Assembly: GCA_050084515.1 (NCBI GenBank)
Contig: CM114271.1
Location: 14,570,001-14,634,000, forward strand
Direction: 5' to 3'
Source: Blasia pusilla
Taxonomy: Eukaryota
DNA: 64,000 nt
Of the stretch, positions 4,640 to 26,289 are shown piece by piece (positions within the stretch are counted from its first letter, which is position 1; the number at the start of each line of letters is the position of its first letter). The notes under the pieces were generated by a model. The model did no database searches. It saw only the letters and a program-made list of their open reading frames with translations, and was not told where the DNA came from. A program made the position numbers and the translations under genes.

Positions 4640-6270
4640 CTAAAGATTGACGTTCAAGGATAGTAGGGGCGCGACAACACTCCTCAAAGGCCGTAGATGG
4701 GGTCCGAAGAGCCTTCGACAATATGAAAGATTGGGGAAGTCTAGCTTGTCTGCCAGCTTCTCCCCTATGGGGATCCAACTTCACATCGGATCCTCGTGGC
4801 TCAAAAGCTCTCACTGTGTCTCTCGTAACCATTGCATCGGCATCCACTTGTGCGTTGTTGCACAAAAATCCCATACCTCCTAGATCTCCCACCATATCCT
4901 AGGCTTGAGCAGATCTAGAAGTTGACGTGCCCCATGAACCTGATGTAGATGCCTGCTTGGCCGTCATCACCTGAAGGCGTTGCTCCAACTGAACAATCCT
5001 TGCCAAAGTTGCCTCTGATGTAAGTGATGCACTTGCTCTGGCAGGTGGTGGGGTCCTACCTCCACCATGTCCTCGACCTCCTACACCTCGGCCTCTACCA
5101 CGTCCAGGTCCTTGACCTCCCTCTAGGCGCAGCTCGGGGTGGAGCTCGAAACATCTCTCGCGTGTTTTGCCCATATCTCTGGCAATGATCACACTAAGTT
5201 AAGGGTGGTCTCCCCTAGGCCGTCTCACATACAGTTCATGGTGTTGCTTGCAATCCACTCTACTATTTACAATCTCGCTCACGATGTGATCCTCCACACG
5301 TCCAACAAGAAATACCTGAGCCTTGTTGCCCAACATATGACTAAATTGATCGTGGTCCTAGCTCCCGATATCCTCATGTAGCCCTTGATCCCATGACTCT
5401 ATCTCGACTAGTGCGCTGTGGTATTGATGGAGACACCGTCACTCATGTCGTCTCCTTCAAAGATGACGTGCCTATCGTCAAAACTCTCTCCTCAAGTACG
5501 TTGAGCTCAATCCACTCTGCCAACAAAAATACAGACTTGAGAGTAGGCAAACCAACATGTAAGAGAGTTGCATCTCGCACTCTCTTGCAAAATTCTCGGT
5601 CTAGCATCGCATACCAAAATTGAATCGCTCGCACCTCCGTCACATCGTGAGTCATTGTAATCAATCGTCAAAGCCGTGCATAGGCCTCTCAAAGACCCTC
5701 CCCCGCTCTCCGTTGAAACTCATGAATTGACTCTAGCTTGTCGGTCCTCATCCCCTCGTAGTTCCTCCCCAACTCTTGGAAGAACTCAACCAACGGGTTG
5801 AACGCGGGTGGTATACGGCTGGTCACACTCGTAAGACTCCGGTCGACAACTCCTCGAAGTGTCTCCTCCATGCGGTTAGTGGGTGCTATTGTAGGCGCCA
5901 CATCATACATCGCACGCCCTATGAGGGACACATATCCTGGAGACCAAAATAATCTCCACGCCTCGATCTCTACCTCATGGAGAATCCAAAAGTCGTGATA
6001 ATCATCCACGGGAGGGCCCTACAGATGCTCAAAAAGTCCCTTCCATGCCATAACGGGGTCGAATCTCTATTGGTTCTGCATCCTCTATGCATCACACCAA
6101 CTATCAAATTCCTCCATAAAATCATCCAACTCGATGGTTTCCACCTTGAGACTTATCGGGGTCCCCTCATGGACCCATACATATCGCGATCGTTCATGTC
6201 CTACAACAACGGTGTGGCGACACTCGTTGGCCTCTCCAGTAACTCAAAATCCATTGACGTTACCTCAGGA
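4640..6270 (-). pseudogene. Gag of the DNMT-bearing Gypsy element
   Basis: Capsid-like segment KLESIHEFQRRAGE, zinc knuckle CWTCGGSHRERDC (~5268-5310), second knuckle remnant RERCFELHPEL, and a GRGRGRG low-complexity tract. Confidence 0.75.
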
Positions 6271-7127
6271 GGAGGAGCGGTAAGAGGAGAGGAAGAGAGG
6301 AGAGAGGAGAGAGGAGAGAGGAAGAGAGGAGAGGAAACTAGGGTCAACCAAAATAGATACTTTTTTTTGGAGAGAGTTTCCGTTGGGTTGAAGAGAGGAA
6401 AATTTTTGTTTGAAATTTTTTGCACTTTTTTGTTCATATATTAAGCAGTCCCACAGTTTTTTTTTTCCTCTTCCATATTTTGGCAACCCCTCTGAGTCCG
6501 ACGAGTTGCAAATTGCACAAAATTTAGAAAACTGAAAAATCAGTGGAATCATAAGTGTGGAACCAATCACTTTTTCCATCCAAGGTCTGGAAAAATCATC
6601 ATTTGCCCGGGCTGAATAGAGTTCAAGCTCAAAGTGAAGGTTGAGAAAAAAATAAAAGTACAATCTAAAACCTCATTTTGCATCCTCAAAGTGGTTTGTT
6701 TAAAATACTTCGAACTTCTTTAAGGGACAGAATTGGTTGGTGGATTCCTAGTCCTACCTCCGACTCTCTTAAAACTACCAGCAACACATAGTACATGTGC
6801 TTACAAGGGAAATACCTTTTGCCACTTGTCTCTCTTTGGACAAAGTCATCACATGAACATGTGGGAAATCAACAGATGTGCACCACATACACCCCTGTGA
6901 CACTTGAATTTACAGTGTTGTTCCTGACCCAATACATCCTACATATTCCATTGCCACTCAAGACATCTTTCGTGGCGATGATCTCCATTTTTTCCTCCCG
7001 AGCTGATGCAATTCGCTTTGCTCTCTCCACCGTTGGCTTTGCACATTCTATTTCTCTTCACCCCATTTCTAGACTCAAACAGAAATAATGGATTGAGATC
7101 ATCCACCTTCTCCGGTACATGTTGACA

Positions 7128-10100
7128 TCAATCTTGGGTTGAATACGAAATGCGAAGTCTCTCAGAATGCTGAACATGCTCCGAACTTCCCCTGTCTACG
7201 AGTCTTAAACGGGCACTTGTAAGATTGTCCACTTCGTCTTGAGTGCAGTTCGTGCCTGCAGCGATGGGCCAAATCGTGGGGGTATTCCCGGGAGCTCCAA
7301 TGGCAACCGGATAAGACTTCCGGAAAGCGCAAGATTCATTTGGGCAGAAGAAGTACTTCAATTGATCCCTGGTCCTCGTGAAACGATCAAAGGTTTTGAG
7401 TCCCCAAAACCCAGGCAAGTGGTTGTCCATCCTTGTACGATTCTTATTTAGGAAAGTGCCGCATGCTCTCCTAATGCCATCAGATCCTGCCTGCAAGTGG
7501 GTCCACATCCTGGGTTGCTCGAGATATATGCCACCGTTTTAGGTTGCAATCCACCTCCATTACGAGAATCCCATATTGTTGAACCACCCCAAAGGTGACG
7601 GAGGATCTGCGAACTTCCAAAGAACGGAGGGCTTTTGAAATAAAACATTCACTGATTTTGAAGAAGTAACTCCATCACGGATTTGGGACGGGTCCTGGGT
7701 CCCCGAATACCTGGGCGGCGTAATTTCCTCATCCAAATCAATCACCAGATTCGTTTCTCGATGCTGCCTCTTCACCTGCCTGAAGTCAAGATACTTATCT
7801 GGTCTCCACGAGTCTCGCTCGGACTGCTCTACCACCATCTGTATGGGACGTCTTGAAACCCGCCCACGAATATCCCCGCCAATGTGTAAGTCTTGCTCGA
7901 GCGGAGTTCCAGCTACGCACCGGTTGAAGGCTTCCACATACATTTTTTCATCACGAGATCTCACAGCCGCCCTGACATAGAACTCGTAGATCGACGGCCC
8001 CTTTCCTTTTGTTATGCCTTTTGTGAGGAAGATATGGGATGCTGCAGACTGTAGCATTGCTCTTGCCTGGTCTTGTTGGCATGCCTCCACAAGTGAAATT
8101 CGTTGGCATGCTTGTGACCACCTCCAGGAGGAATGAACACTTTCTGCTCCACTTGTGTTGGGGCAGAGGGAATTTTCATGAACGTTCAATCCCTGCAACG
8201 ACGGCAATGTTAGAAGGGAACGAAAATAACTCAGCAGTCAAAGACATAAGCTACCTGTCGGAACCAGATGGGTTACAAGGCCGAGGAATCTCATGAACGA
8301 CTCTGCAACCCGTCGGGTCCTGACGTGTTGCAACCCTAAACCCACCTACTGCAACCCGTCGGATTCAGACGGGTTGCAAGGCCGAGGCATGCCATGAACG
8401 ACTCTGCGACCCGTCGGGTCCCGACGGGTTGCACACTCGGGCAACCCGTCGCATCCGACAGCTTGCTTGGTTTCTTGGGTTTGAAATCCATATAGTTCCC
8501 ACGCTTCTCACCATGAGCTACAACTTTACAAACAATTCTCAGCGTGAGCTTGACAAGACAAAATAGTGAACTCACCTGCCGCATGAAGTTTCCCCATTGT
8601 CTCATACGTACAGTCCACCAACTCAACCAAGAGCACAACTCTTTGTACTTCCCCTCAATCGCATGCTTCCTCCACCTCCCATGAAGTTCTTCCTGGCATT
8701 CCATGGCATGCTTCAAGGTTTTGTTGTCCTTGCAGCGTTGGAGTATAGTCACATGCTCTGTCCTCTTATTCTCCTTGATGCAAGATTTGGTGTACCGGGT
8801 CACAGACTGTTGCCAATGGAAAGCATCTGACCTTTCCCTCTCTGGTTGAACCTCTCCACCCCAGAACACTTCCCGGATAGCAATCCACCCAGGTTGTGCA
8901 TTGTCCGCCATGAACCCATAAATTTCCGGAGGTGGCCTTTTGTTTTCCTTCACCACCTCCAATAAGAGTAACCAACACATCTTCAAACTCCCAACGTCTT
9001 CTGCCTTTACTTCACAGACAAATATAGTTTTGAGTCCCTTCTCCACATGGTCATAAACGTGAGCACCCATCGTCAACCATCCGTTCAAAGACTCAGAGCA
9101 AATATCAAAGCTTACCCGGCTCGTAAAGATCTTCCCCTTCCCTCATTCGATCTATAAGATCGAGGCCACTCGACGGACCTATGGTTGACATTTTGAAGAC
9201 ATAGGCCCAGGATCCTTCGCCTCCTTGGCCCATGAACTGCCATCTCTGAATGAATGGAAATCTGGAGTTGGCCTTGATTATGGCGATGGCATCCATTTCA
9301 GCCGTCTTTCCATCCAAAACTCATATTTGACGCAGCAAATTTCGGAAGCATTCAGGATCAGTGAGAAATGCGAGATTCTCCCAGAGTTGTTTCTCCTCAA
9401 CCGCCGTAATCTCGCCCTGTCCCGGGATTCCAAGCAATTGTTCACAAATTTGTGATGCCGTTGTGAGCTTGATCACTCCGGGCTTTGAACCCGGAGAGTT
9501 TCTGTAGACTTCGGCTACTTTCTTCGCCACATCCTCCTTGATGTGTCTTTGAATTGCATCGGTCACAAGATGAGTGTGGGAGCCAACATGAACTGCCAGC
9601 CTTGTGTACTTTGACGTGGAGCCAAAGTTATGGACAATGAAAAATATGTATGCAGGACACGCTCCAACGCAGAATGGCGATGCCTGACAATGAGGACATC
9701 GATGGCCTCCCGGCGGTATGGTGGCACCGACCTCGTATGGAGTTTCTGCATTCTTGGGAAGGAATTGCGACGTATTGACTCGCTCGTTGCGCTCTAGATA
9801 CGGGCATGCTGGACTTCTACACTCCAAGGCTCCCACGCATTGGCGGCAGGAGACAATCCAAGGACCATCTGGAATTGAAGCATTGGTCCGTTGAAGCCTG
9901 CACCATCGATGACAATCAGACTTTCTGTCCATACCCTTCAAGCGTCCTCCATCCTTCTTTTGAGCAGGAGCAGCAAGTGGAGGTAACTCAAAAATGCAAT
10001 TACCATCGTACGTGGGCGGCAGCTCGTCGACAAGAATGTGCTTGAATATTTTCAAGGCCAAAGACGAAAGCAAACTATTGCCGGATACTCGCAAGAGGAA

Positions 10101-10372
10101 CGAGTAGGCGGATAGAGGGTCCGATTGGTGTCCGACAGATCCACTGAGGTTGATAACATCGGGAATCTCTTCAAGAAGAACATTATTCTGGCGTGCATGC
10201 GGTTGGAGTCGGCCGGATCTGCAGAGCTTGGAGTTGCAAACGTAGAGCTCGGAGCACTAGGAAATTCTAGACCGTCCACTTGGGAAACAGACGAGTTCAG
10301 GGGCAGGCCGTAAACTCTATATTGACCATTTGGTAGAGGTAGGAGATTCCATACTTTACGGTCTGAGGTCAC
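7128..10372 (-). pseudogene. MULE-type transposase with N-terminal GCM/WRKY-like Zn-binding domain (frameshifts; intron 8193-8575)
   Basis: Cys/His domain CRQCVGALECRSPACPY...RCPHC...HVGSHTH (9321-10094). Candidate catalytic residues: D1 in RVSFDIC (~9100, after a frameshift), D2 in GFMADNA...AIREVF...AFHWQQS, and E in PNTSGAESVH after splicing a phase-0 GT-AG intron. Ends in a Cys-containing C-terminal tail. Confidence 0.8.
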
Positions 10373-11575
10373 TGGCTGGACCGTCTCATCTATTATGTCT
10401 CCGTATCGTCCACCCTAACATCTTTGGATACAAAGATGGTTCCAATTGGAGAAGAAATCGAATGCATGTAAAATTTTCATCCACTTTGCTATGAAAGACT
10501 CACGAGCTTGGGGTCGAATGATTTACGATTGAGGAAGGGGCCAGATGATAGCGCCACAAGTGAGCTTATCATAATTATCCATTCCAAGAAGATTCCAACG
10601 GGAGGAGACTGAGAATGAGAATGAGAATGAGAATTAATTTATAGTGAATAGGAAACAGATACTCTCGATGATTTTTCTTGACAAGATGAATTCGGTGGGT
10701 GACATTTATGCGACACAATGGATCCAATTCTGTAACACATTCAATTCTGTTGCAATATGTTACCGTATTTGGGAAGCAGAGGGTTGCGCATCACACTTGG
10801 AACCCGTCGGAGTCCTGGTAACTCAAAAATTACCCGAAGCTAACCGAAGCCTGCAACCCGTCGGCATTGGAACGGTTGCACGGTTCTGCTAAACATTGTC
10901 AAAGCGAGCAACCTGTCGCTCTCCGACGAGTTGCTCGGATACGGCTCCTTCTTGCCCGAAGATGCCGGAGGCGTGCAAACCGTCTGTTCCCGACGAGTTC
11001 CGCGGGTGCCTCACCTTTTTGCCCAAAGACGGCAAGGCGTGCAACCTGTCGCCCTCCAACGGGTTGCGCAAAGTCCTCGCCTTGTGGTGCAGCCAGCCGG
11101 ACTCCGACGACTTGCACAGGAAGCCCTCCTTCTTAACCCTTGATGAGGGAAGCGTGCAACCCAACGGTCTCCGACGGATTGCCCAAGATACGTCCCGTTC
11201 CCGTCCCAAACACGGCGGAGGCGCGCAACATGTCGATCTCCGACGGGTTGCGCGGGTACCTCGCGTTCTTTTCTGAAGACGACGGAGGCGCTCAACCCTT
11301 TGGTCTCTGACGGGTTGATCCCGCACGTGGCAACCTACCCAGGATGGCGGAGGCGCGCAACATGTCGGTCTCCGACGGGTTGCGCGGGTACCTCGCGTTC
11401 TTTTCCGAAGATGACGGAGGCGCTCAACTCGTCGGTCTCCGACGGGTTGCTCGCGCACGTGGTGACGTACCCAGGATGGCGGAGCCGCGCAACCTGTTGG
11501 ACTCAGACGGGTTGCGATTTTTCACGTCCGGACTTCCGTAACATCCGGCACGTCGCCGTCTAAAGAACGACGGGA

Positions 11576-11612
11576 CCCAACGGTCAGCCCAACGGCTAGA
11601 AAAGTATAAATA
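11576..11612 (+). promoter_or_regulatory. Core promoter of the ParB-MTase gene: two tandem MSA-like elements plus TATA box
   Basis: CCCAACGGTCA (11576-11586) and CCCAACGGCTA (11588-11598) both match the MSA consensus YCYAACGGYYA. TATAAATA at 11605-11612 is followed by a pyrimidine-rich initiator region, ~300 bp before ATG 11905. Confidence 0.65.
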
Positions 11613-11904
11613 GGGCAGAAATCGCTCATTTCCGGTTTCTCATTTCGCGATCTTCATTCCTCACTCTCCCGCGCAGCAGCTGATCAGATACGAAGGGGCA
11701 TTTCACACGGCGACACATCGCGAGTCAATAGGAGGGAACGAGAGCGAGACGGTTCGACCGAACGACAATGAGACGGTTCGACTGAGCAATCGCGGGACGA
11801 TTCGAGCTACCCATCAAGGCGATTCAAGCTCCCCATCTTGACATCAACAAGGCGACTGATCAAGGGATTTGTCGTGGACATAGGTGGAGGCATTTCCGGA
11901 AAAA

Positions 11905-14900
11905 ATGACGAGGAAAAAATCACAAGCCAACAAGTCTGGGAGCTTCACTCCAAAGTCCATTAGGACTCCTGCGTCAACTTCTCCTGGGCCTCGTTCGGCG
12001 AATGAAATTAGGCAACAGGAAATCAAGGAGCGGGAAAGGGAAGCGGAGATGCACAACCAAGTGCTTCTTGCGAGACGTGTTCAAGAGGCGCTAGATAAAC
12101 AGAACGCAGAGGCTGAGACGTCGCAAGCCTTGAAGAAAAGGATCGCCGACGAAAAGAGAGAAAAGAAGCGTCTAGACGCGTTGATGAGGAGGGCAGAATT
12201 GGCTAAAGCGAGAAGGGAAAAAGCAATAGCCATTGACGATAGCCCTGCCCGTCCAACCGCAAGTGTTGAGATGCGGGAAATGTCCCCCACGAAGTCCGGG
12301 GACACAATCAACATAGTGGAAACGCCAGAAGTTGAAATCGATGAAGACGAGGTCATGAGGACCGCCAGCGTGGAGATGGTGCACATGGCCGAAGAAGCCG
12401 GAGAGCGGTCATTCTCGACTCCAAGCCCGGCGGAGGACATCGACCTCTATCGGATCGACGAGTTCCCAGTCGATTTGCCAGCTTCTGGCTTAGACAAGTT
12501 AGCTGGTCAAGAAACCGACCCCATTTTCGAGCGGGTAAGAGAGGATCTGGGTTTTTTGAATTATGTGAATTGCAATTCATTGGGAATTCAATGTAGCTTA
12601 TTCATCTTGTTCGATTTCGACGGTGGTAAAGCGAGATGGCACTCATGGAGGGCCACAACGCCGAGGATTCCACTCTACCGATTGCGGACAATGGAATACG
12701 TCCGCGAAATTCCATCCGCGAGGACATCGCGAAGCTTAAACAATCGGCGGCGCGACAAAGATCCTACGTCGACAGCTTTCCTCCCTTCTATGTTCAGCCT
12801 TACGACGAGCATGGAAACCAAGCTCTGGTTACGGAGGAGGACTTGGAAAAGCTCAACACATTCTGGAGGATGCAAGACCAGGATTTCAGAAGGCAAGTTG
12901 AGGGCACGGAATTCAGCTGGATGAGGAATTTGCATTTCTTCATCTGGGATGGAAATCACAGGTTCATGGCGTGGACCAAGTTTGCGGAGGAGCGGCCCAA
13001 CTCATTGGAGGCACATTTATGCGTGAAGGCAGTGGTCCTTCACCCATTCCCTCATCACATGGCGACGGTGGAGATGGCAATGCATGCCATGAACACGTGA
13101 GTATCTTTAACACTTACGCAACTCGTCGGACTATGACGAGTTGCTCGATTGATGAATGGGTTAGGTTTTTTTTTTCCGAAAGCAACTCGTCGGAATCCGA
13201 CGGGTTGCTCGACTGCACGCTATTTCGGATGTTTTTTTAAGAATGCAACTCGTCGGACTCCGACGAGTTGCTCGATTGATGAATGGGTTACGTTTGTTTT
13301 TGCCGAAAGCAACTCGTCGGACTCCGACGGGTTGCTTGACTGCACGCTATTTCGGATGTTTTTTTAAGAATGCAACTCATCGGACTCCGACGAGTTGTTT
13401 GATTGACCACAGATTTAATTAGTTTTTGGCCCAAAGCAAACTGTCGGAGTCCGACGGGTTGCTCCACTCGCCGCCTTGTCAGGATGTTTTTGGAAGAATG
13501 CAACTCGTCGGACTCTTACGAGTTTTTTGACTGACTGCAGGTTTAGAATATTTTTTCCCCAAAGCAACCCGTCGGAGTCCGACGGGTTGCTTGCCTCAAA
13601 ACTATTTTTGGCCGAAATCAACCCGTCGGAGTCCGACGGGTTGCATTCGGAAGTTGGTTCCCCAAATTTCGCATCAAATTGTAAGTTTACATTCAATTAT
13701 GCAACCTGTCGGACTCCGACGGGTTGTTATGTTCACGTTAGTATGTTCAGTTGAACAACCCGTCGGAGTCCGACGGGTTGAAACCAGGCATTAGCAAATC
13801 TGAATGCAATCCGTCGGACTCCAACGGGTTGCATCATTTAGCTCGTTGCTAGAATCCGACCTTGAGTTGTGACGACCCGTCGGAGTCCGACGGGTTGTAG
13901 GAACCCATGTAATTTCCTGACGGGTTGAGTTTGGATGTGCAGGATTGTATCGGAGGGGAATGTCACCACCTGGATCGGATCGCGATCGGGTGAGGAAGGT
14001 GCTTATGAGCGCACCGGGAGAGTCTGATGGGTTTTAGGCGATGCCCTTGTCAATCGATGCTTGCAAAGGGTGCTCAGTTATTAAAAAAGAAAACTTGGGC
14101 AAATAAGTTTATTTCCCAAGATGCAGCCGTAACCATCCTTTCTTTGGTCGAAGATACAAAGCCGCAAGAAAAGCGCCAGACCGAGTTTGGAGCCGAGGGA
14201 GAAGGTATCTGCATCTAAGCGCTCAAAATTCATCCAAGCTGCAGTATCTGCAGCAACGAAATACACGGCGAGCAAGATGCAGCGATACATGAGCATTCTC
14301 AACCCCGAACTTGGTTCGGAGTTCTATAAGGAGTTGAAGACGATTATCAAGCGCCAGCAGAAAAGGGATGAAGATCCGCATGGTCGGATTGGGGAGAAAG
14401 TGTCCCTGGATCGCGTGCATCGGTTTGCGTTGTCCGGCATAAGCGAGTTTAGGAGGATCCGACTGATGAAAATCAGTCTCGAGGGCAGAGAGGCCCAGAA
14501 GAGGGCGGCACACCATCCTCCGGGTGTGTCTGATCCAGTGATCTCCCAATGGCTACGCGAATGGTCGTTCTGGGACGCGTTGCGGGTTATCGGGAAGTCC
14601 GTGGTGGAGGGTCTGCAAGCAGAGCTTAGAAGATTAGAGCCCATCCCGGATGAAGCAAACCTTGAAAGTTCTGGAGATTTCAAGGTTTGGCTCGACGACA
14701 TCCGGGACAAGCCAACCAAAAACCCATGATTCAAGACAATGTTCAAGGTTTGCGTCCTCCCTCAGGCACAGCTTGACAAAGAAGTAGAGGGGAACAAACG
14801 GGATCAAGCGAAGAAGAAGCGAGATCTACAGGAGCACGCGGCCGATTCTGTTCGATTGAAAGCTGCCCAGAGGATGGTCTTCAGGTACCTCGTCCAGTGT

Positions 14901-16833
14901 AAGAATGCAAGTAAGTGGGGAAAATTACCGGCAGCCTTGAAATTGTGGGCTATACCGCCGGATGCAGAGACATTCTCCATGTACGACATGGAGATGGGGC
15001 AGCACCTGTCCGATTGGGAGGTGGAGAATTGCCCCATTTGGCTCGACTTCAACGATCCTGAAGACATCACCGATAAGGATTTACGAGTGCTTCATGGTGC
15101 AGTGGCCTCAGGACAAGACGACATCCCCAATTTCGCCCGGCTGAAGACTTCTTCGGAGGAGATGCAGAAGAAGCAGGCCCACGAGGCAGTGAGTTGGCTT
15201 CCAAGGTCCGCACAGCCAAAGACAAATCCAGAGCGGGTCTCAAAGGCAAGGCGAGGGGAGGGAAAAATTCAGAGGCCGAGTCTTCCCAAAGAGAGGCTGA
15301 AGATTCAAGGCGAGAGGCGGAATCGTCCGGGCGAGCGGGGAGAGAGGGTCGGACCAGGTCCTCGGCGAAAAAAAACCCCACGAGTCTAAGGTCATAGAGA
15401 CCCGACAAGCCGTCCATGAGACTAGGGAAAAGCGAGCGAGAGGTGCGGGTTGTCCCAAGGATAATACAATCCATCATCCTTGGGAAGACACAGACAAACA
15501 ACGACCCGGACAAGCGTCCTCCTTGATTCACTCCTTTCTTGGATGAGTGAAGAGCTTGATTCTCAGCGTCGACACCAACCATCGAAAAATTGACAACGCT
15601 GGGACGGAAGCTCCAACGAAACGGGCACGCTGCCTGGACGGTGAATGGAGTGGTCGAAGAGGTTGCGGTGGATCTCTTGATCGCCGATCTGCCCTAGGGG
15701 TTGCGACTTTGGGGCGATAATCCGTCGGATGAGGTACCTGAGTGGAATGTGCCGCTCTCTTATGACCAGATTGCGCTTTTGTTCTCCTTTGCAGATGCCT
15801 ATCTGAGTGACAGGGGCTGCTTCTTGGTGTTGACTGGAGGGAGCGAGGACGAGCTCTTCAACCTCCAGTGCGTCAAGAGGTCACTAAAGTGGAGGACGGC
15901 GCAATCGTGGATCATAAAAAATGAGTACCCACTCCGATCCGCGACGAGTCAGATTCGGGTAAGGCTCAATTCCTGTACTATAATGAGTATAATGAGTGTC
16001 AATCTGGGTTTTTTTTGTCCATGAGCAACCAGTCGGAAGGCGACAGGTTGCTGGCTTAGAGCAGCCCATGCTCGGCTGAGAGCAACCCATCGGTTTCTGA
16101 CGGGTTGCATCTTTCCCACATACACAGGGAAAACCGCGGTGTACCTGCAACCCGTTGGAACCCGACGGGTTGCAGTTGCTTTTGGTTTTTCCCAGTTGCT
16201 TTTGGTTTTTGGATGCAACCCATCGATAGCGGCGGGTTGCTCTCGGCGAGCATGGCTGCTCTAGGCGACAACCCGTCGCCTTCCGACGGGTTGCTCACGG
16301 ACAAAAACAACAGAGCCCGACGGGTTGTTTTAGTCCCTAACCAACCCGTCGGAAGGCAACGGGTTGGTCCGGGACAAAACAACCCGTCAGACTCCGACAG
16401 GTTGATCCAAAGTCAGTTATTGAAAGTTTTCTCAAGCTGACTTCTTTAGTTTCTGACATTGTTTCCAACGTGTTGATTTCTGAGATGGACCACTCCCTCG
16501 TGTCTTTGCCCGTTCGGCCCGAGCACAATTTCGGTGTTCAAGATCCAGGATCCTGTGGATCCATGCTCGGATGGGTCTGACTTAGATAGTTTGTACAATT
16601 CCCCGGGAATTTACATGCAAGACACTACCCCACTTCTGGGAGGAAGGGAAAAGTCGCCAGCCCTGATGCAAACGCTCATCGAACTCTGCTCAAGGCCGAG
16701 TGACTTGGTGTTCGACTTAGTGGGACTTTCAGGGGCAAGTATCAAAGGCGCCTGGCAGAGTGGGAGGAACATTCTCTGCCTCGAGGGAAGGCAGGAACTG
16801 TTTGACCTTTGCAAGGAGGCAAAGCGAATCTGA
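11905..16833 (+). pseudogene. Transposon-borne multi-exon gene: coiled-coil N-terminus + ParB/Srx-like domain + beta-class N6-adenine/N4-cytosine methyltransferase domain
   Basis: ParB/Srx motif FFIWDGNHRFMAW (ORF 12636-13100). Amino-MTase catalytic strand VDLLIADLP*G (15668-15700; the stop replaces W/Y of a DPPY-like motif), then LSDRGCFLV. SAM-binding half REKSPALMQTLIELCSRPSDLVFDLVGLSGAS...GRNILCLE (16534-16833). Likely introns 12535-12596, 13097-13942 and 15959-~16484. Several stops and frameshifts. Confidence 0.72.
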
Positions 16834-19800
16834 AAGGCTCGTTGGGGCGTACAACTCTCCACCGAAGCCGAGAGCTCCGGTTCCAGAGCCACTCTTGGTA
16901 GTAACTCCATCGTCACTTCCAACGATTCCAAAAATCGGGAGGGCAAGGCGGAAAGTAATTTTGCAAGAGCTCTCGGACGATGACGAGTGAGCTCAAAGAA
17001 CTCAACGACCCATCTTGACTACAGCGTTTGGAGTAGGGAGTTTTTTGATAATGAGGCAAAAGATTTCATAGAATAGATCAAATGTCTGATTAAAGAGATT
17101 TTTTTGGATGATATAAAGCGAAGATTTTTTGAACGATGGTGGTGCTTGTAAAAGTTTTCTTGATCATTTTTGTCTTTTCGAATGTGATCGTCTATGTACT
17201 CCGCGGACTTCTATTTTGCAACCCGTCGGATTTCTCCTGCTTGCAACTTTTCACTTTATGACCACTACAACCCGTCGGATTTCTCCTGCTTGCAACTTTT
17301 CACTTTTTGACCACTACACCCTTTTTACCGCTTCCAGGCAACCTGTCTGATTCCGACAGGTTGCCTGATCAGACCTTTTCCCTGTTGGTCCAACTTAAGA
17401 GGCAGTCTGGCGGGCTTCTTCCCTTGGCACCTTCCCCTTAACTCGTAAAGGCAGGCGTAGGCTTCTTTTCTTCTCTCATACATGTTGGATTCCTACTACC
17501 TGTGCGATTGCCATAATGGTATTACCGGGGACGGAGTAGATATTGATACTGGATGGGTGTCACATTGCAGAGCGTACAAGGTATACTGCCGAGGAAGGCG
17601 GTGGGACTCGAAACAGGTTACATGGGACCGTTATGGTGTACCTAGGGGGGGGCCTAGGCTCTCAAATTCGCCAACATTTTCGATCCCCGTCTACAATCGG
17701 CCAGAGGAGCCACTTGTATCCCAAGACATTCCTTTGGTATTGTCACCGAGGAGAGTTAGGAGTAAATTTGTAGATGACGAGGCTGAAGAAATCATAGACT
17801 AGGTGAAATGTACATTTCCGAGGTCCCTTCGGAGGTAATAAAGGACGAGATTTTTTCAACCCATAATGGTGTTTGTAAAAGTTTGCTGGAATATTTTTTT
17901 GGACTTGTGGATTGTGTTCTTTTAGCTACTGAGAATTACAATTCTGCAACCCGTATGATTCCGACGGGTTGCAACTTTTTGCTTTTTGCCCACTGCAACT
18001 TTTTAACCATTTCCAGGCAACTTGTCGGATTCCGACAGGTTGACTGCTTGAGTGATCGGACTCTATCCCAGTGAGACCGACTTCTGACGCATTGTGGCGG
18101 GCTTCTTGACTTTTGGCTCGTTCCCCTTCATTCGTCAAACCAGTTGTAGGCTTCTTTTCTTGTCTAAGATGTGCAGGATTCCTACTACCTGTTGGATTGC
18201 CATTTCGGATTCCCAACCTGTTAGATCGTCGTGGGTGTAGGGTGGAAGAAAATCACTTCTAAAAATCTTTCCTTTCTTATGGTGAGCTTTCTTACGGGTT
18301 GGGAGGGGTGCAGCTTCTCGGTTTCTCAACCTTAGGATCAAATGTGTTCACATTTCACAAAGTTGGTCTTGAGCAGACACCATTCATAACCAACAGAAAG
18401 TTGGTTATGGGGCAATTTAGGGGAGGCCATGATGCAGGCAACAATCCCTGTAAAAAGAGAGGTTGGCATCCGGGTGGTCCTCCAACAAAAATACCAAGGG
18501 CACTGATTTTTGTTGACCGAGACAGGGAATGTTAAGAAACTTAGGCTCACATGGAGAGTGATAGAAAAATGTTTAGGGTGGTCTTATGATGTCTCCTTTT
18601 TTCTGGCCCCCAGGAAAGAGGAGGTGTTTTAGGGCCAAATGTGGACCACCAAATACTCTCTTCTAAAGATTTCATGAATTTGAAAGCAAACAAAAATTTC
18701 AAATATGTCAAAAAGTTTTGAAGAGAGGAGGCGGATTTGGCCCTTTTTTTTTAAGAGAGACTCTCCTCTCTTCCTCTCTTCCTCTCCTCTCTTACTCTCT
18801 CCTGCCAAAATACCACCCCCCCCCCTCAGGAGTACCTACAACTTACGGCTGAGTTGGTTCCTTGTGTGGAAACCCTTGATACCTAGCCCCACTCCGTGTA
18901 AATCCTCCGCCACTTCTACCACTACCACGCTCCCCAATACTCTGTGGATGCGCTATGGTGGACCCTGCAAACTACTATGACTCACTCTCGAGCCACTAGC
19001 TCTACACTAGACAATGCCCAAACCGTGGATACGCTCCCACTTATCTCACTTGATATCAACACTCGCCAAATAGCCCGCACATTAAGTCACTTTTGACTAG
19101 TGTGATATACATCCATCCCACCAAGTTCTCTACAATAGTCGCGATAGTGCCGTACACTCACCAACGCACTAACAATATATGTGTCATCCAAAAATCACCC
19201 CTCAAACATCTCCATAAGCAACAAGGTAAGTGAATAAATTTCCCCTGTCTGCAACAACTAGTCATCACTTCCTTGTGGGTGTGTTGGTAACACAACATAC
19301 AAAAGAACTCACTAATTAAGCACACTCTGGAGGAATAGAATTGGGATGGGTGACCTGGATGTTATGTTGAACTGGATCAGCATCAGCTTGCCAAGTCCTC
19401 ACGCCCGCTAGCAAGTTGGCTTGCTGGCGCCTCGTGCCTTCGACGCCTCTCACGCCCACTTGCACCTTCGACACCTCTCCCACCTCAAAGCCGCGTGGTT
19501 CCAATTGCTCACTCCTCCCTCTCTCCTTCACATGCCGCGCTGCACCGCACCTGATAGAAAGAGCCGCACCCACTTGATCAAGCTGCGGAATAGGAACCAC
19601 AGTTCTGATTCTTCCTCCTTCCTCTCACCGCGCTTGAAGAAGAGCCGCGCCCCACTTGAGAATCCGTGGAATGGGAACTTGAGTTTGGATTCTTCTCTCC
19701 TTCCTATGAACGCCGTGCTGAAACTGAGAGTATCTCTAACCTTGCTTCTTGGGTCCGTGCCGAAGGGGATCAGAACTTCAATTCCGATTGCCTTCATTAT

Positions 19801-20346
19801 TCTTTCCATCCCTTTGCAGAGAGAACCCAACACAACTGAGGAGCGGAATGGGAACTAGAGTTCTGATTGCCTCCTTCCTATCCTCTCCAGCTTCCTGCAG
19901 AGAAGACCCACAAGTGAAGAGCACAATAGGAACTAAAATTCCAATTGCCTTCTCACTTCACTTCCCTACACCACCGCACTCTGCCACGCCATAGTAGTCA
20001 ACTGCAGTTGAGACGCTCCATTGTTCTCCAACTGAGATAGAATTGGAACTTGAGTTCCAAATCCTCCTTGCTCTCTTGTCCCTCCTACTGCACCAATCTC
20101 TGCTACGCCATCAAGATGACCACCATGCACACGCCTTCACATGCCGCCCTACGCCGCACCTGATAGAAAGAGCCGCACCCACTTGATCAATCTGCGCAAT
20201 AGGAACCAGAGTTTTGATTCTTCCTCCTTCCTCTTGCCGTGCTTGAAGAAGAGCCGCACCCCACTTTAGAATCCGCGGAATGGGAACTTGAGTTTGGATT
20301 CTTCTCTCCTTCCTCTGAACGTCGTGTTGAAACTGAGAGTATCGCC

Positions 20347-20652
20347 TATTGAAGATTGAGTTATAGTGAAGCTCATGAGACACTTGAACTGCTATATTTG
20401 GTAGTCACATGAAGTAGGGAAGCTAAATCTTGGTTAGTCAGTTAAGCGCGATTATCTTAATTAGGGTTAGTTAATCACAGTTAGTCTAACTTGAGACTAA
20501 GATTAGGGTTAGGGTTGTTTGTATATACCCTATATAATTGAGAAGGGGACCAGCTTCCACTCATTCTCTCATTGCAAATTTCGTTCTCCATGGTGATGTA
20601 TGTGTGTGAGAGCCATTTTCCACCAATTATGCTTGTTTAACAGTTTTCCACA
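20347..20652 (+). repeat. Copia 5' LTR
   Basis: TATTG...CCACA; about 25 mismatches (hand count) to the 3' LTR. Confidence 0.95.
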
Positions 20653-21169
20653 TGGTATCAGAGCGATAGGAGAACATCACTTGAAATTCTTGGTGTTTGA
20701 GGAGATAAGAGAGGCAAGAGAAGGCAAAATTTTAATTTAGGTGAAGGAACTTTAATTCAAAGCTCAGTGGGTGTAGATTTCAGGTGGAGCTTTGACAATG
20801 ATAAAACTTTGGAGGCATTTTTGAAGGCTTTCTGGATCGATTATGCCATCTAGATCCATAGCAGCTAGAATAATGCTTAAGCCTGGTTTTAGCCATATGG
20901 TAGAGCTCGCTGAGAGCTTTCCAACGCACCCAAAATTGCTCAATTTTGACATTCTGAGCTCATACAGTAGCAATTTTAGTGTAGGTAAGTGCAATTAGTG
21001 AAGAAAAGTTGTGCAGTTTGCTCTCTACAGGCCAACTTCGACTTGTTCTTTCATACAGATGATCAATTTTGGCAAATTTCAGGTCAATTTCTGTGTAGGA
21101 GTGGTGTATGCTTCAATTGGAGTAGTAGAAAGCCTGAAACGTTTTTTTTAGTGAAATATCGTTTTTCAT

Positions 21170-24100
21170 GGAGTATTCCTCAACAACAATCATGGGCGAG
21201 AAGCTAGATAGAAAGAATTACAATATCTGGAAGTTTTGCATTTAAAAATTTCTCATGGGTCAAGAACTATGGGAGCTTGTCACAAGTGATAAGGCCTAGC
21301 CAGAAGGTGCTTCAAGAGACTTGAATGTTCGCGCTTGGAACAAACGCGTAAGTCAAGTAATCCACTACATTTCAATAACGATCAATTCGCCAATGATAGG
21401 TCACATTCAAGATGTTGATATTCCGAAGGAGGCGTGGGATGCATTGGAAAAGTTGTTCCAGACATCTATAAAGGTCAAAAAGCTTCAATTGAAACAACAA
21501 TGGAACGAAGTGAGAAAAGGATCATAGAGCATCAATGATTATATCAAACATATTGTTGATGAGTTGAATAGCATTGGAGTGATAATAGAAGACGATGATA
21601 TGATTTTATTCCCTCTTCAAGGCCTTCCAAAGGATTACAAGTCCTTTGAGACTTTTATCTCTATGAGAGAGAAGTATCCAACCTTTCAAGAATTAGTTCC
21701 TCTATTGATCAATGAAGAGATGCGCCTAGTAGGCAACGGTAGCTCGTCTAATTTGCAAGAGAGTGCACTATTTGGAGGTTATGGATCAAACAGAGGTAGA
21801 GGTCGTGGCATAAATTTCTGTGTTCGTGGTGGATATCAAGCATATGGAGGTAGAGGCACTCAATATAACGTCACACAATCAACTATGAATCAGTACCCCA
21901 CACAATCACAAGGTGATGATGGTGGAAACCGTTGGGGTTGAGATCAACAGCAGAGGGTCCTTGGATCTTGCAATTATTGTGGGATAAAGGGTCACTATGC
22001 ACATTTTTGCTTCAAGAAGAAGGCAGATATGAGAACAAGAGCCTTACAATAACAAAACTATATGGAGCAAGAACACCAAGAGCAATACGAAGAACAACAA
22101 TATTCACACACGAAGAATCTCTTAGTAATGACTCATCATATGGGAGCAATGGTCAAGAAAGACTCGACAGCAGATTGGTACATTGACTCTTGTGCATCAA
22201 ATCACATGACTTCACAAGCTAAATGGTTCACTCATTTGGAGCCGGTGAAAGATCTTGCAAGTGTGCTCACAGGAGATGACACTCAACATCATATCACGTA
22301 TATCGGTAAAGTTCCAATAACATCAGATGATCTTTGTGCTCTTGGAAATCTTCACTATGTTCCTACCATTGCTAGAAACCTGATCTCTGTAGGACGGATA
22401 GTAGAACAGGGTTATCAAGTGAAGTTCAACGTAGATGGTTGTTTCATTGAAACAATGGATGACTAGACTACGATAGCCAAAGGAACTATATCTGACAAAA
22501 TGTTCAAATTAGATGTTTCTATGCCAAAAATTCAAACAATTATGTGTGGTCAAATCGGCCAACAAGTCACAGATCTAAATATGCGGCATAAAAAAATTGG
22601 ACATATGAATCTTCAAAGATTACAAAGTTTTTCATCATCTAATATAATAGTAGGACTCCCTAAACTACCGAGTCCTGCTACGTTAGAGATATGTCCTGCT
22701 TGCCAATTTGGAAAACAAGCTAGATTTCCTTTTCCAAAGCAAGGTAGAAGAGCATCCAAGATATTGGAGTTGATCCACAATGTTGTGTGGACATCATCAT
22801 AACATAATCTTAGTGGTTGCAAGTACTTTGTTTCATTTATTGGTGACTTCTCTAGGTATATATGGACATACTTTATGAAAGCCAAGTCAAAGGTATTCTC
22901 AGTGTTCCAAACATTTAGAGTTATAGTAGAGAAGCAGATTGGAGAACACATTCTGAAATTGCGTTGTGATGGAGGAGGAGAGTATTCTTTCAATAGAGTT
23001 TGATGACTATTTACGTCAGAATGACATCCAACGTCAAGTGACTTGCCGTTACACTCCACAAAAAAATGGAGTGGCTGAGAGGAAGAATCAATATATTGCT
23101 GAAGCGGCACGAGCTATGCTGAATGAGAAGAACATGCCTGAGGTCTATTTGGCAGAGGCTGTAGCATGTGTAGTCTTCTTAATCAACTAAACTCCAACAG
23201 CAAGAGTTCATGATAAAAATCCATTCGAATTCTTCATAGGAAGTAAAACTAAATTTTCCTTCTTGAAAGTATTTGGTTGTATTTGTTATGCTCATGTTCC
23301 TTCTTAAACATGTCAGAAGTTAGACCCCACGTCTGAAAGATGTATCTTCATCGGCTATGCTGATGGAACTAAGGGATATAAGTGCTACATTCCATCCTCT
23401 AGGCAGCTTATTAATAGTCGGCATGTTGTCTTTGATGAGCTAAAGTCATAGTATGTTCCATCTGAGCCTATTCCACCTCTAAACTCGTCTATTGAGAGGG
23501 ATAATATGATTGTAAACCAATAGACATTGTCTTCAACTTCCCCAAGTACTAGTGCAGGATTAAGAGAGGTCATACTTTCATCAATTTAAATTTGTGGGTC
23601 CATGGACGGGAAGAGTACATATTCAATCTGTTGACACTAGTCAGAGCTTGAGTCAGATATTAGAGGCATCTACCTCTGAACAATAACTTCGTAGATCAAG
23701 CAGAGTTACACATCCAGTTCATAGATTCATAAATGAAGGTTTCCTTCCGACACATCATGCATATATGATGACTATCCTTCAAGAACAGGAGTCGAGATAT
23801 TTTGTAGAAGTTGCAAGTAAAGTCGAATGGATTGAAGCTATGGAGGAAGAGCTTACTGCAGTAAGACATGAACAAACATGGGAGTTGGTTGATATACCTT
23901 TCGATAAGGAAGCTATTGGTTGCAAATGGGTTTACAAAATCAAGTGCAATCAAGATGATACAATTAACAAATACAAAGCGTGATTGGTGGCTAAGGGCTA
24001 TACACAACAATATGGTATCAATTATGAGGAAACATTTAGCCCTGTAATAAAGATGGCGACTACGAGAATAATGGTTGCAGTTATAGTAAGTAAGAAGTGG

Positions 24101-25346
24101 AGATTCCATCACATGGACGTCAAGAATGCCTTTTTGAATGGAGATCTGTACGAGGAGGTATATATGACTCAACCACCTGGATATGAGCATCCCAAGTTTC
24201 CATTTCGCGTATGTAGGTTGAAGAAAGCTCTATACAGGCTCAAACAAGCTCCAAGAGCTTGGTATGGCAAGATTACATACGTCCTACAAGAGTTGAGTTT
24301 TAGGGTATGTGATTCTGACTTCTCGTTATATGTCTTGAGAGGACAAGATCATACGGTTCTCATTGTGTCATATGTTGACGATCTCCTGATTACTGGGAGT
24401 ACTGAAGAAATTGTACAACAAGTCAAGCTTAACTTACAAGCAGAATTTGATATATATGAAGGACTTGGGAGAAGTCAAGTACTTCCTTAGTATTGAGTTT
24501 ATTAAGGTTGGAGAGAGCATGTGGTTACTACAACGACAATATGCTCTTCATATGCTTTCAAAATATGATATGACGGCTTGTAAGCCAATCTCTACACCGT
24601 TGGACCAGAGCGTGAAGCTAAGAGTGGATGAAGGAGAGTTGCTTGCAGATTCTAATATGTACATGCGCATGGTTGGAAGTTTAATCTATCTAACTATAAC
24701 CAAACCTGATTTGAGTGATGTTGTTGGCCTAGTGAGTCAATTTATGCAAGCATCTCGGAAACCTCACCTTGATGCTGTGAGGAGGATTATGCGGTATGTA
24801 AAATTCTCTATTCAATTCGGGCTTCAATTTGAACTTTCTCCGAGTTTTCAATTACATGGATTTACAGATGTTGATTGGGGAGGAAGCGTGTCCGATCGAC
24901 ACTCCGCCTCTAGTTATTTATTTATTTTGGGAAGCGCAGTTATAAGTTGGGCTTCAAAGAAGCAACCTACATTTGCTTTATCTTCAACAGAGGCCGAGTA
25001 TAGAGGAGCAACCAATGCAGCATGTGAGGCGGTGTGGCTTCATCGATTACTTGTTGAGATTGGTGGTATTAGTAACTTAGGACCTAGTGTAATATATGCA
25101 GAAAATATTAGTATCATCAAGCTTGCTAATAACCTTGTGTTTCATACTCGTACAAAGTATGTTGAGGTGCATTATCATTTTATCAGAGAGAAAGTGTTTG
25201 TAGGAGAAATAGATCTTGTGTACATAGGTACAGATCAACAAATTGCTGACATCTTTACAAAAGCATTGTCGAGAGATAAGTTTGAGATGTTTAGAAATGA
25301 TTTAGGCATTAGAGATATCGATATGAGCTTTAGGGGGGAGTATTGA
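21170..25346 (+). pseudogene. Copia gag-pol (gag, PR, IN, RT, RNase H) with stops and frameshifts
   Basis: Knuckle CNYCGIKGHYAHFC, protease WYIDSCASNHM, integrase YTPQKNGVAERKN, RT HMDVKNAFLNG and YVDDLL, RNase H SSTEAEY...RTKYVEVHYHFIRE. Confidence 0.95.
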
Positions 25347-25646
25347 AGATTGAGTTACAGTCAAGCTCATGAGACACTTGAACTGCTGCATTTGGTACTC
25401 ACACGAAGTAGGGAAGCTAAATCTTGGTTAGTCAATTAAGCGCGATTATTTTAACTAGGGTTAGTTAATCATAATTAGTCTAACTCGAGACTAAGGTTAG
25501 GGTTAGAGTTTCTTGTACATACCCTATATAATTGAGAAGGGGACCAGCCTCCACTCATTCTCTCATTGCAAATTTTGTTCTCCATGGTGGTGTGTATGTG
25601 TGAGAGCCATTTTCCACCACTTATGCTTGTTTAGCAATTTTCCACA
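25341..25646 (+). repeat. Copia 3' LTR
   Basis: Direct repeat of 20347-20652, preceded by the PPT and followed by the TSD. Confidence 0.95.
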
Positions 25647-26289
25647 TCGCCGACCTTGCTTCTTGGGTCCGTGCCAAAGAAGATCAGAACTTCAATTCTA
25701 ATTGCCTTCACTATCCTCTCCACCCCCCTATAGAGAGAACCCAACACAACTAAGGAGCGGAATGGGAACTAGAATTCCGATTTCCTCCTTCCTATCCTCT
25801 CCACCTTCATGTAGAGAAGACCCACAAGTGAAGAGCGCAATGAAAACTAAAGTTCCAATTGCCTTCTCACTTCTTTTCCCTACGCCGCCGCACTATGCCA
25901 CGACGTAGTAGTCAACTGCAATTAAGACGCTCCATTGTTCTCCAACTGAGATAGAATTGGAACTTGAGTTCCAAATCCTCCTTGCTCCCTTCTCACTCCT
26001 GCCGTGCCAATCTCTGCTACGCCATCAAGACGACCACCATGTAGTTGAACCACGCCTTGGCTCAACTATGCTTGAAATGAAACTTGAGTTCCAAATCCCT
26101 TTTGCAGCTCCTTGTCACCCTTGCCGCGCCCCTCAGATGACTCGGCCCTTGCTGCTGAATCAGAACTTCAGTTTCGATTCCAACTTCACCACTCTGCTCC
26201 GAATTGCATCTTGGGAGGGCTCTCATGAATTGGAACTTAAGTTCTCATGCCTCCCTCAACTCCACTAACTCTGTGTAAAGAAATTGATT

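Follow-up and report, generated by a model that had tools for sequence, protein, structure and literature searches.

In this work, we focus on an array of palindromes in a stretch of 64,000 nucleotides from the land plant Blasia pusilla (contig CM114271.1 of assembly GCA_050084515.1, positions 14,570,001 to 14,634,000). We call this whole stretch the window and number it from its first letter. The array lies inside a DNA transposon of about 12.5 kb that carries two divergent genes, a transposase gene on the minus strand and an accessory gene on the plus strand. The latter (11906..17802) was traced by its homology to proteins of Riccia, and its product is predicted to comprise a domain like that of ParB, a helical domain and, at the C-terminus, a part that resembles beta-class methyltransferases. 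The array directly follows the exon for the ParB-like domain. An earlier note on this DNA had described this array; the same palindrome can be found in five further clusters of the element. We will first describe the palindrome and its conservation, then the gene that may encode its binder and the relatives of that gene, and finally what the sites may be for.

The palindrome and its six clusters

The array begins with a strictly tandem part (13118..13591) made of eight palindromes spaced by 63 or 64 bp. As had been noted earlier, the copies start at 13118, 13182, 13245, 13309, 13372, 13436, 13500 and 13564, each as a 27-mer if the flanking G is counted. The typical 27-mer of the array reads GCAACCCGTCGG-AGT-CCGACGGGTTGC, and variants of it occur. 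Tandem Repeats Finder (TRF) calls two periods over 13118-13591, one of 64 bp (7.4 copies, 67% matches) and one of 127 bp (3.7 copies, 84% matches). Units of two types, A and B, thus alternate in the strict part and form a dimer. The less regular copies that had been reported downstream, about five in number, are present too, as 25-mers at 13619, 13702, 13756, 13807 and 13873. They are separated by gaps of 54, 83, 54, 51 and 66 bp and, together with an orphan half-site at 13917-13927, they make up the second part of the array (13619..13927). The T-tracts attributed to the spacers can also be seen in the sequence. With up to 3 mismatches allowed, there are 36 strand-hits to the palindrome, where 100 shuffles lead one to expect 0. 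The length of the array differs among the copies of the transposon family, with joints in DNA contigs that skip 134 and 253 bp inside it.

The array had been placed in the intron immediately after the ParB-like exon, and several observations support this placement. A GTGAGT donor occurs at 13097, two bases past the last aligned codon, protein homology stops at 13094, and an AG acceptor lies at 13940-13941, after which the next short stretch resembles, by eye, the residues that follow in the Riccia proteins. This delimits a plus-strand intron of 845 bp (13097..13941) that is nearly all array. The homologous predicted proteins tend to end at the same place, 33 of the 43 aligned ones within 3 columns of the exon end at 13096, and these shared ends suggest that gene callers stop at an intron whose position is conserved. 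The depth of sense RNA reads, taken from three runs that bear the same species label, also dips here. It amounts to 0.11, 0 and 0.08 in the bin 13312-13745, against 0.95, 1.51 and 0.24 in one of the flanking exon-bearing bins and 0.69, 2.38 and 0.35 in the other. Similar dips are found in the bins that hold the palindrome clusters at 8.3, 11.2 and 16.1 kb. In these runs no spliced joint passed the threshold for listing, and we infer the intron from the points above.

The site itself consists of two inverted half-sites of 11 bp around a 3-bp centre, CAACCCGTCGG-N3-CCGACGGGTTG, for a total of 25 bp. We scanned the window for both half-sites, leaving the 3-bp centre free and allowing at most 5 mismatches, and found 40 sites. 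All of them lie between 6484 and 18042, in six non-coding clusters of the transposon, while the remaining ~51 kb of the window and 20 shuffles yielded no full site. The half-site taken alone, with up to 1 mismatch, gives 58 matches where 0.40 are expected, and all of these fall within 5790-18042. Neighbouring sites are 38-121 bp apart, and mostly 46-83 bp. No site (0 of 40) overlaps a homology-supported coding segment, and once the palindromes are masked, the element is left without any word that recurs over 4 times.

The clusters are spread over the whole element. From left to right, a single palindrome stands about 220 bp inside the left end (6484..6508), and four palindromes lie 3' of the transposase homology (8251..8431), probably in an intron of the minus-strand gene, where RNA depth dips over 8104-8537. 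A second array of 11 palindromes occupies the space between the two divergent genes (10854..11514). Its tandem part, 11212-11516, has a period of 67 or 132 bp, and it ends about 90 bp upstream of a TATA-like box, TATAAATA, on the side of the accessory gene. This box, at 11605-11612, stands about 300 bp before the ATG of that gene at 11906. The intronic array comes next, followed by six palindromes in the gap between two exons of the methyltransferase domain (16026..16404), as delimited by homology and RNA depth. Five palindromes or half-degenerate copies (at 17219, 17268, 17339, 17947 and 18018) then close the series in the 3' part of the element (17219..18042). In this last region, 17219-17318 is made of two 49-bp tandem units that are 98% identical, each with an intact left half-site and a degenerate right arm. 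The segment 17265-17514 is moreover duplicated at 17944-18203 with 76% identity.

The earlier note had held that the palindrome is conserved while its spacers diverge, and this is what the 40 sites of this one element copy display. In the half-sites, the consensus base has a mean frequency of 0.89 (1.45 bits per position). The value falls to 0.64 for the centre triplet and to 0.39 for the flanks of 22 bp on either side (0.15 bits), which means that motif and spacers do not diverge at equal rates. The same holds within the 13 sites of the intronic array (0.92 in half-sites vs 0.56 in flanks) and among the 27 sites outside it (0.87 vs 0.41). In the eight strict tandem units, the values are 0.92 and 0.70, and the high match of the flanks there is due to the units being young duplicates. 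The changes observed in the arms comprise 83 single-arm changes, 1 double change that is non-complementary and 6 compensatory cells, which trace to 2-3 events. Permutation of the right arms yields 3.9 +/- 1.7 compensatory cells, and 6 or more were reached in 329 of 2000 permutations. The arms thus do not co-vary beyond chance, so the constraint would bear on the sequence of each half-site, as in a protein site, and not on pairing, as in a hairpin. Taken together, half-site conservation and the lack of arm covariation favour protein recognition over a hairpin function.

The centre of the site deserves a separate mention. A GANTC centre can be found in 20 of the 40 sites, where about 1 in 16 would carry it by chance. 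It is concentrated in the intronic array (12 of 13 sites, and 8 of 27 elsewhere). As only half of the sites carry GANTC, we rejected it as a conserved feature of the site. GANTC is the target of methyltransferases of the CcrM/HinfI type, from the Pfam family that the C-terminus of the accessory protein resembles, and we treat this as a lead only.

The accessory gene and its relatives

The exon that encodes the predicted ParB/Srx-fold domain (FFIWDGNHRFMAW) spans 12630..13096 on the plus strand, as judged from homology to Riccia proteins over 12765-13094 and from a fold model. Riccia proteins of full length (1191-1207 aa) could be aligned with the segments 12765-13094, 14145-15047, 15581-16018 and 16612-16806. 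A HMMER search of 1.84 billion representatives with the exon returned 95 relatives at E <=0.001, 22 of them at E <=1e-10. Twenty relatives were looked up, and the 14 that were named are all hypothetical proteins, which come from the liverwort Riccia sorocarpa in 13 cases and from the fern Adiantum nelumboides in one. The exon gave no NCBIfam match, no PDB sequence match and no match in a word-indexed search of longer proteins. The copy in the window has in-frame stops near 14730 and at 15695-15697. The second is due to an A at 15696, where nearly all DNA contigs and RNA reads of the family have a C that restores a Ser inside a DLPSG motif.

The ParB-like character of the exon rests on structure prediction. 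The AlphaFold model of the window exon, built on an alignment of 44 sequences, has a pLDDT of 83, and all 17 listed structural matches are ParB, Noc, KorB, PadC or Srx, with Z from 5.8 to 4.4 over 83-95 aligned residues (the best, at Z 5.8, aligns 89 residues with an rmsd of 3.1). For a Riccia homolog of 570 aa, the model has good confidence from residue 100 to residue 410. Its match to Myxococcus ParB has Z 8.4 (93 residues aligned, rmsd 2.5), and its top 12 rows all belong to the ParB family, while rows unrelated to ParB reach Z <=4.5. Over residues 113-449, the same model can be aligned with ParB, Noc and KorB across their two domains, the N-domain and the one that binds DNA, with 177-183 residues aligned, an rmsd of 5.4-6.2 and Z of 7.2-8.3. 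From these models, a ParB/Srx fold of the N-domain is likely, and a ParB-type DNA-binding domain after it is plausible. The ParB-CTPase proteins are characterized by a nucleotide-binding motif of the Gly-x-x-Arg type. In the alignment of 44 sequences, N109 is invariant, and D107, G108, H110 and R111 are nearly so.

At the other end of the protein, the resemblance is to beta-class methyltransferases, which are defined by an FxGxG-like motif I and by a catalytic motif IV of the form (D/N/S)-P-P-(Y/F/W). A segment resembling motif I, the AdoMet motif, is present, VIDFAGGWGAT in the homolog P0098 being aligned with VFDLVGLSGAS in the window (16612-16806). The match to the Pfam family N6_N4_Mtase (PF01555) covers only the last ~50-55 positions of the profile, in the last exon of the window copy as well as in the C-termini of the Riccia proteins. 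No 2OG oxygenase family was found in the Pfam scans of the exons or of the homologs.

More distant relatives were sought in metagenome contigs with a small alignment of the ParB exon and the pattern [VI]WDGNHR[LF]. This gave 75 loci, which fall into 44 non-redundant groups, with identities of 22-31% over the longer matches, and of up to 50% over short ones. The exact palindrome of the window has 0 matches in metagenome contigs. We then considered recurrent palindromes of any sequence, defined by arms of at least 9 bp, a spacer of at most 8 and at most 1 mismatch, three or more such palindromes making a family. As a control, five window segments outside the element gave largest families of 1, 2, 1, 1 and 1, and the element itself one of 23. 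Palindrome families were detected in 9 of the 44 groups, of which 6 are among the 21 groups with at least 5 kb of sequence and 3 among the 23 shorter ones.

The palindromes of the relatives differ from that of the window and from one another. The locus L001 carries 16 sites of the type GAGGTGCC..GGCACCTC, mostly 137-139 bp apart. In L019, GGGGTATTGGCGG-NN-CCGCCAATACCC is arrayed in tandem at 64/128 bp, and the dimer period gives 96% matches. In L025-28 and L038/39, types of TCAACTTTTGG..CCAAAAGTTGA recur at 51 bp, in L007 AAGCATTCGGCGCCGAATGCT recurs at 75 bp, and further types can be found in L018, L023, L047, L052 and L053. Eleven loci were scanned with their consensus, and 10 of them contain 3-16 sites each (L068 has one), with shuffle means of 0-0.02. 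These sites flank the ParB exon on both sides, mostly within 2.5 kb and always within ~5 kb. In four of the loci (L001, L018, L025 and L053) the arrays flank the ParB exon and no transposase homolog was found within up to 6 kb on either side. The loci that share the CAACTTTTGG-type palindrome form one clade of ParB exons, with support 100/99. As an aside, the array at L019:1-281 is built on an unrelated palindrome with arms of 12-13 bp, yet it has a 64-bp unit and a 128-bp dimer like those of the window.

These arrays also bear on the spacing. The earlier note had taken the 63-64 bp period as a sign that the sites lie on one face of the helix. This does not generalize, the other array periods being 65-69 bp in the element and 51, 64, 75 and 138 bp in the relatives. 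We thus rejected helical phasing as a general property, because the periods differ among arrays.

What the sites may be for

On balance we somewhat favour the reading that the intronic array is one of six clusters of lineage-specific self-recognition sites for a dimeric, transposon-encoded DNA-binding protein, which would most likely be the ParB-like accessory protein. A parS- or iteron-like platform for a dimer had been proposed in the earlier note. This idea gains from the conserved half-sites without covariation, from the confinement of the sites to the element, from the arrays of the relatives and from the ParB-like fold, and it stands as a prediction. The accessory protein is the best candidate binder for two reasons. 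Arrays accompany its gene in relatives whose surroundings yielded no transposase homolog, and the members of its fold family, ParB, Noc and KorB, bind as dimers to palindromes scattered over a replicon. Were the palindromes docking sites of this protein, the ParB fold would serve to recognise DNA in a eukaryote, which is rare.

In mechanistic terms, two inverted half-sites would suit a dimer, and the palindromes would constitute the address of the element family. The sites may have been multiplied by tandem duplication wherever the DNA tolerates it, that is, in the promoter region, in introns of both genes and in the 3' region. Copies of the family would be recognised by the protein and acted upon locally, through control of their transcription or through modification or protection of their chromatin, and the protein's methyltransferase-like domain could write or block a base modification on the bound copies. 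A bolder version of this scheme is a eukaryotic self-marking system of the ParB-parS kind, in which a dimer loads at the 40 palindromes and perhaps spreads as an NTP-gated clamp, the methyltransferase-like domain modifies or blocks the element's own copies with GANTC as its target, and the whole co-evolves with the array in each lineage. As an account of this element we hold it to be quite unlikely.

Several points weigh against the accessory protein and its sites being such a recognition system. On the side of the fold, Pfam finds no ParB model in the exon (only DUF1015, at E 0.011, with 15.2 bits against a cut-off of 25.8) and no family in 12 homologs of the exon. The structural matches are moderate, with Foldseek E-values of 0.07-0.45 over both models (0.45 and above for the window exon), fold Z values under 8 can mean a mere common arrangement, and the second domain aligns at an rmsd of 5.5-6 A while being about twice as long as the ParB DNA-binding domain, helical matches being permissive. 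On the side of the methyltransferase, the PF01555 scores stay below the 26.7-bit cut-off (21.4 bits for the window exon and 23.7-26.2 for the Riccia proteins), and motif IV is non-canonical, reading DLPTG in P0098, DMPSG in P0014 and DLP-stop-G in the window. The window copy is in addition a decayed member, a pseudogene, of a family whose other copies are transcribed. As for the relatives, 35 of the 44 groups have no recurrent long-arm palindrome at the threshold of the detector, although many of the negative loci are short or AT-rich and may be decayed. Among these 35 are the two groups that hold both a transposase and a ParB homolog (L031/32/40 and L073/75). Finally, the co-divergence of palindrome and ParB exon fits recognition of the one by the other, yet common descent of whole elements would give the same pattern.

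Another protein of the same element could be the binder. The palindromes may be sites of the transposase or of a transposase-derived regulator, in the manner of TnpA on En/Spm or of a self-activating MULE transposase, which strikes us as rather unlikely. The transposase of the element does have a cysteine-rich N-terminal region, and the half-site contains CCGAC, a word that we assume to be part of the TnpA motif as well. There are also precedents, since CACTA elements encode proteins that bind repeated motifs (PMC2613891) and a MULE transposase is reported to activate its cognate copies (2026 preprint, 10.64898/2026.08.24.746577). The positions of the sites argue against it, with only 1 of 40 within 300 bp of an inferred end and none in the termini. 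So do the relatives, both in the four loci where arrays flank the ParB exon and no transposase homolog was found, and in the two groups that have such a homolog and showed no palindrome family.

The two remaining explanations do without a binding protein. In one of them, the palindromes are a plain minisatellite, a hairpin-prone unit that was amplified by slippage and spread by duplication or gene conversion, with no function. The strict part is indeed a young tandem duplication (a 127-bp dimer at 84% matches), the copy number of the array varies between family copies, and several of our counts are inflated by the shared descent of the units. One 25-mer is however kept in six clusters whose flanks resemble each other at background level (0.41 vs 0.87), unrelated palindromes form comparable arrays beside the homologous gene in distant relatives, and a chance palindrome with arms of at least 11 bp is improbable, by our estimate about 1 in 1000 per 64-bp unit, which makes this explanation highly unlikely in our view. 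The other, which we rank as the least probable of all, is that nucleic-acid structure matters, with transcribed hairpins or inter-unit duplexes feeding small-RNA pathways, or with DNA cruciforms. The earlier note had suggested a source of hairpin RNAs, and the RNA of the 845-nt intron does fold strongly, with -395.6 kcal/mol where shuffles reach -254.5 +/- 8.2 (z = -17). Any two palindrome units can pair over ~25 bp, and tandem repeats are known targets of RNA interference (PMC5735166). The hairpin idea finds no support in arm covariation, as there is no excess of compensatory changes, while centre and flanks are free and each half-site keeps one sequence. The individual stems are only 11-12 bp long, there is no Rfam match, and the RNA-seq depth over the array is near zero, in libraries that cannot show small RNAs.

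Recognition by the ParB-like accessory protein would bring this element close to several known systems. The bacterial ParB/parS, Noc/NBS and KorB/OB systems share with it the fold of the N-domain, and plausibly that of the next domain, as well as palindromic sites of two half-sites, present many times per replicon. They differ in that there is no Pfam-level membership here, that the host is a eukaryote and the gene has introns, and that the sites are 25 bp long with a free 3-bp centre, against ~13-16 bp in bacteria. The closest precedent comes from the Plavaka transposons of red algae, in which tandem arrays of inverted repeats adjoin PAG3, an accessory gene with a ParB domain, and whose authors propose that PAG3 binds and modifies its own element (Petroll et al. 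2025; 10.1101/2025.02.11.637652). Since arrays beside ParB-domain accessory genes were thus described in 2025, both our observation and the hypothesis attached to it are of a known kind. In both cases, a large DNA transposon carries an accessory domain that is only weakly detectable as ParB-like, with inverted-repeat tandem arrays next to it, and 7BNR, the best HHpred hit for PAG3, is among the top structural matches here. In Plavaka, ParB is fused to a putative 2OG oxygenase and the methylase is a separate gene, PAG2, with PF01555 plus SET (10.1101/2025.02.11.637652), whereas here the ParB-like and methyltransferase-like parts are in one protein. The host is a red alga and the transposase of the Plavaka/CACTA type there, while we deal with a land plant and a transposase that is MULE-like at the level of a lead. 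In our element the arrays moreover take up introns and extend across all of its length, and the two sets of repeats are likened by description.

The fusion itself has precedents as well. ParB-CTPase fusions to N6_N4 methyltransferases are enriched in phages, and ParB-fused adenine methylases were listed in chlorophytes and chytrids by Iyer and colleagues (PMC4738411). In Ectocarpus, Sola1-1_Ec32 encodes, opposite its transposase, a protein of 1104 aa with ParB and DNA-methyltransferase domains that may represent a new accessory class (PMC12477816). The likeness lies in the order of the domains, ParB-like and then an N4C/N6A-type methyltransferase, in the size (1104 aa vs 1191-1207 aa for the Riccia homologs) and in the divergent orientation with respect to the transposase. 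Unlike our element, Sola1-1_Ec32 belongs to another superfamily and another host, and the passages that describe it mention no cognate site arrays.

Binding of tandem motifs by an accessory protein is documented for VANC, an anti-silencing protein of the VANDAL (MULE) elements of Arabidopsis. In VANDAL21, its motifs make up tandem repeats that evolve fast and lie in intergenic DNA and introns (PMC5735166). There as here, the target motifs of an accessory protein (a predicted one in our case) are tandem repeats in intronic, intergenic and terminal non-coding DNA of its own family, repeat units are gained or lost between copies, and motifs differ between related families. The binding of VANC was shown by ChIP, whereas the palindromes are putative binding sites. 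The VANC motifs are short non-palindromic words and not 25-bp palindromes, and VANC is not known to be ParB-like or to have a methyltransferase domain. A last parallel is found in En/Spm, where TnpA binds a repeated, family-specific motif in direct and inverted orientation in the subterminal regions (PMC2613891). The repetition of a motif for an element-encoded DNA-binding protein, a predicted one here, is common to both. The subterminal concentration typical of En/Spm CACTA is absent, the one site within 300 bp of an inferred end being that at 6484, with the others 0.8-7 kb inside.

We found no paper that treats ParB together with transposons of liverworts, mosses or ferns. With respect to the systems above, the land-plant host, the combination of a one-protein ParB-methyltransferase version with arrays, and the lineage-specific set of palindromes would be new. 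Also new are the exact site with its 40 natural variants in one copy and the evidence of half-site selection without arm covariation. If the recognition reading is true, this element would be a compact case of a transposon that recognises its own copies and treats them epigenetically. Such self-treatment has so far been shown by experiment only for VANC in Arabidopsis, and merely proposed for the accessory genes with a ParB domain in algae. The land-plant host comes with named relatives, from a liverwort and a fern, and the set of relatives with different palindromes would provide ready-made controls of specificity.

The transposon and its surroundings

Inverted runs mark the approximate boundaries of the element. 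A GA-rich run at 6283-6335 and another at 18761-18803 are mutually inverted, and the similarity reaches ~6263 on one side and ~18836 on the other. This places the approximate left terminus at 6263..6336, where the depth of DNA contigs also rises, and the approximate right terminus, CT-rich in the forward reading, at 18761..18836. Both inferred termini are purine runs of the (GAGAGG)n type in inverted orientation. No target-site duplication was recognised at these ends, so the boundaries are to be taken as approximate. At 6536-6545 and 18502-18511, ~270-330 bp inward of the two inferred ends, there is an inverted pair of the word AAAATCAGTG, which may be a subterminal site of the transposase. 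Contigs from a DNA run pile up over 5934-18500 (122,917 pieces, with summed depths from hundreds to more than 100,000, depth not being equal to copy number) and not over 5500-5933, so the transposon family is highly repeated.

The homology-supported part of the transposase gene covers 8522..10115 on the minus strand. It was delimited with two proteins of 660-678 aa (P0101 and P0102) that match 10115-8522 at 31-47% identity in tblastn. The gene is probably of the MULE type, in that the nearest ESM-Atlas clusters carry MULE (PF10551) and not CACTA families, with scores of 0.82-0.88 that serve as leads only. A Pfam scan of the transposase matched no family. The earlier note had mentioned a GCM-like domain, and for this label on the transposase N-terminus the Pfam scan, the only test made, gives no support. 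Over 5500-19000, no Rfam family reached its gathering score. Both genes are covered by stranded RNA reads of the three runs, at low depth and in sense orientation. Reads at 99% identity or more to the window copy number 0-1 per run, and all but one of the reads fall below this value, so they stem from other copies of the family.

Outside the transposon, two stretches of the window look like other kinds of mobile DNA. A copia-type LTR retrotransposon occupies 19525-26041, with putative frames for gag, integrase and an RT-like product at 21528-25346, the domains being read from the translations. It is flanked by repeats at 19525-20653 and 25341-26041 that are 89-92% identical and partly rearranged. 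Further on, at 57634-59749 on the minus strand, frames can be found that resemble, by eye, the reverse transcriptase of non-LTR elements of the LINE type.

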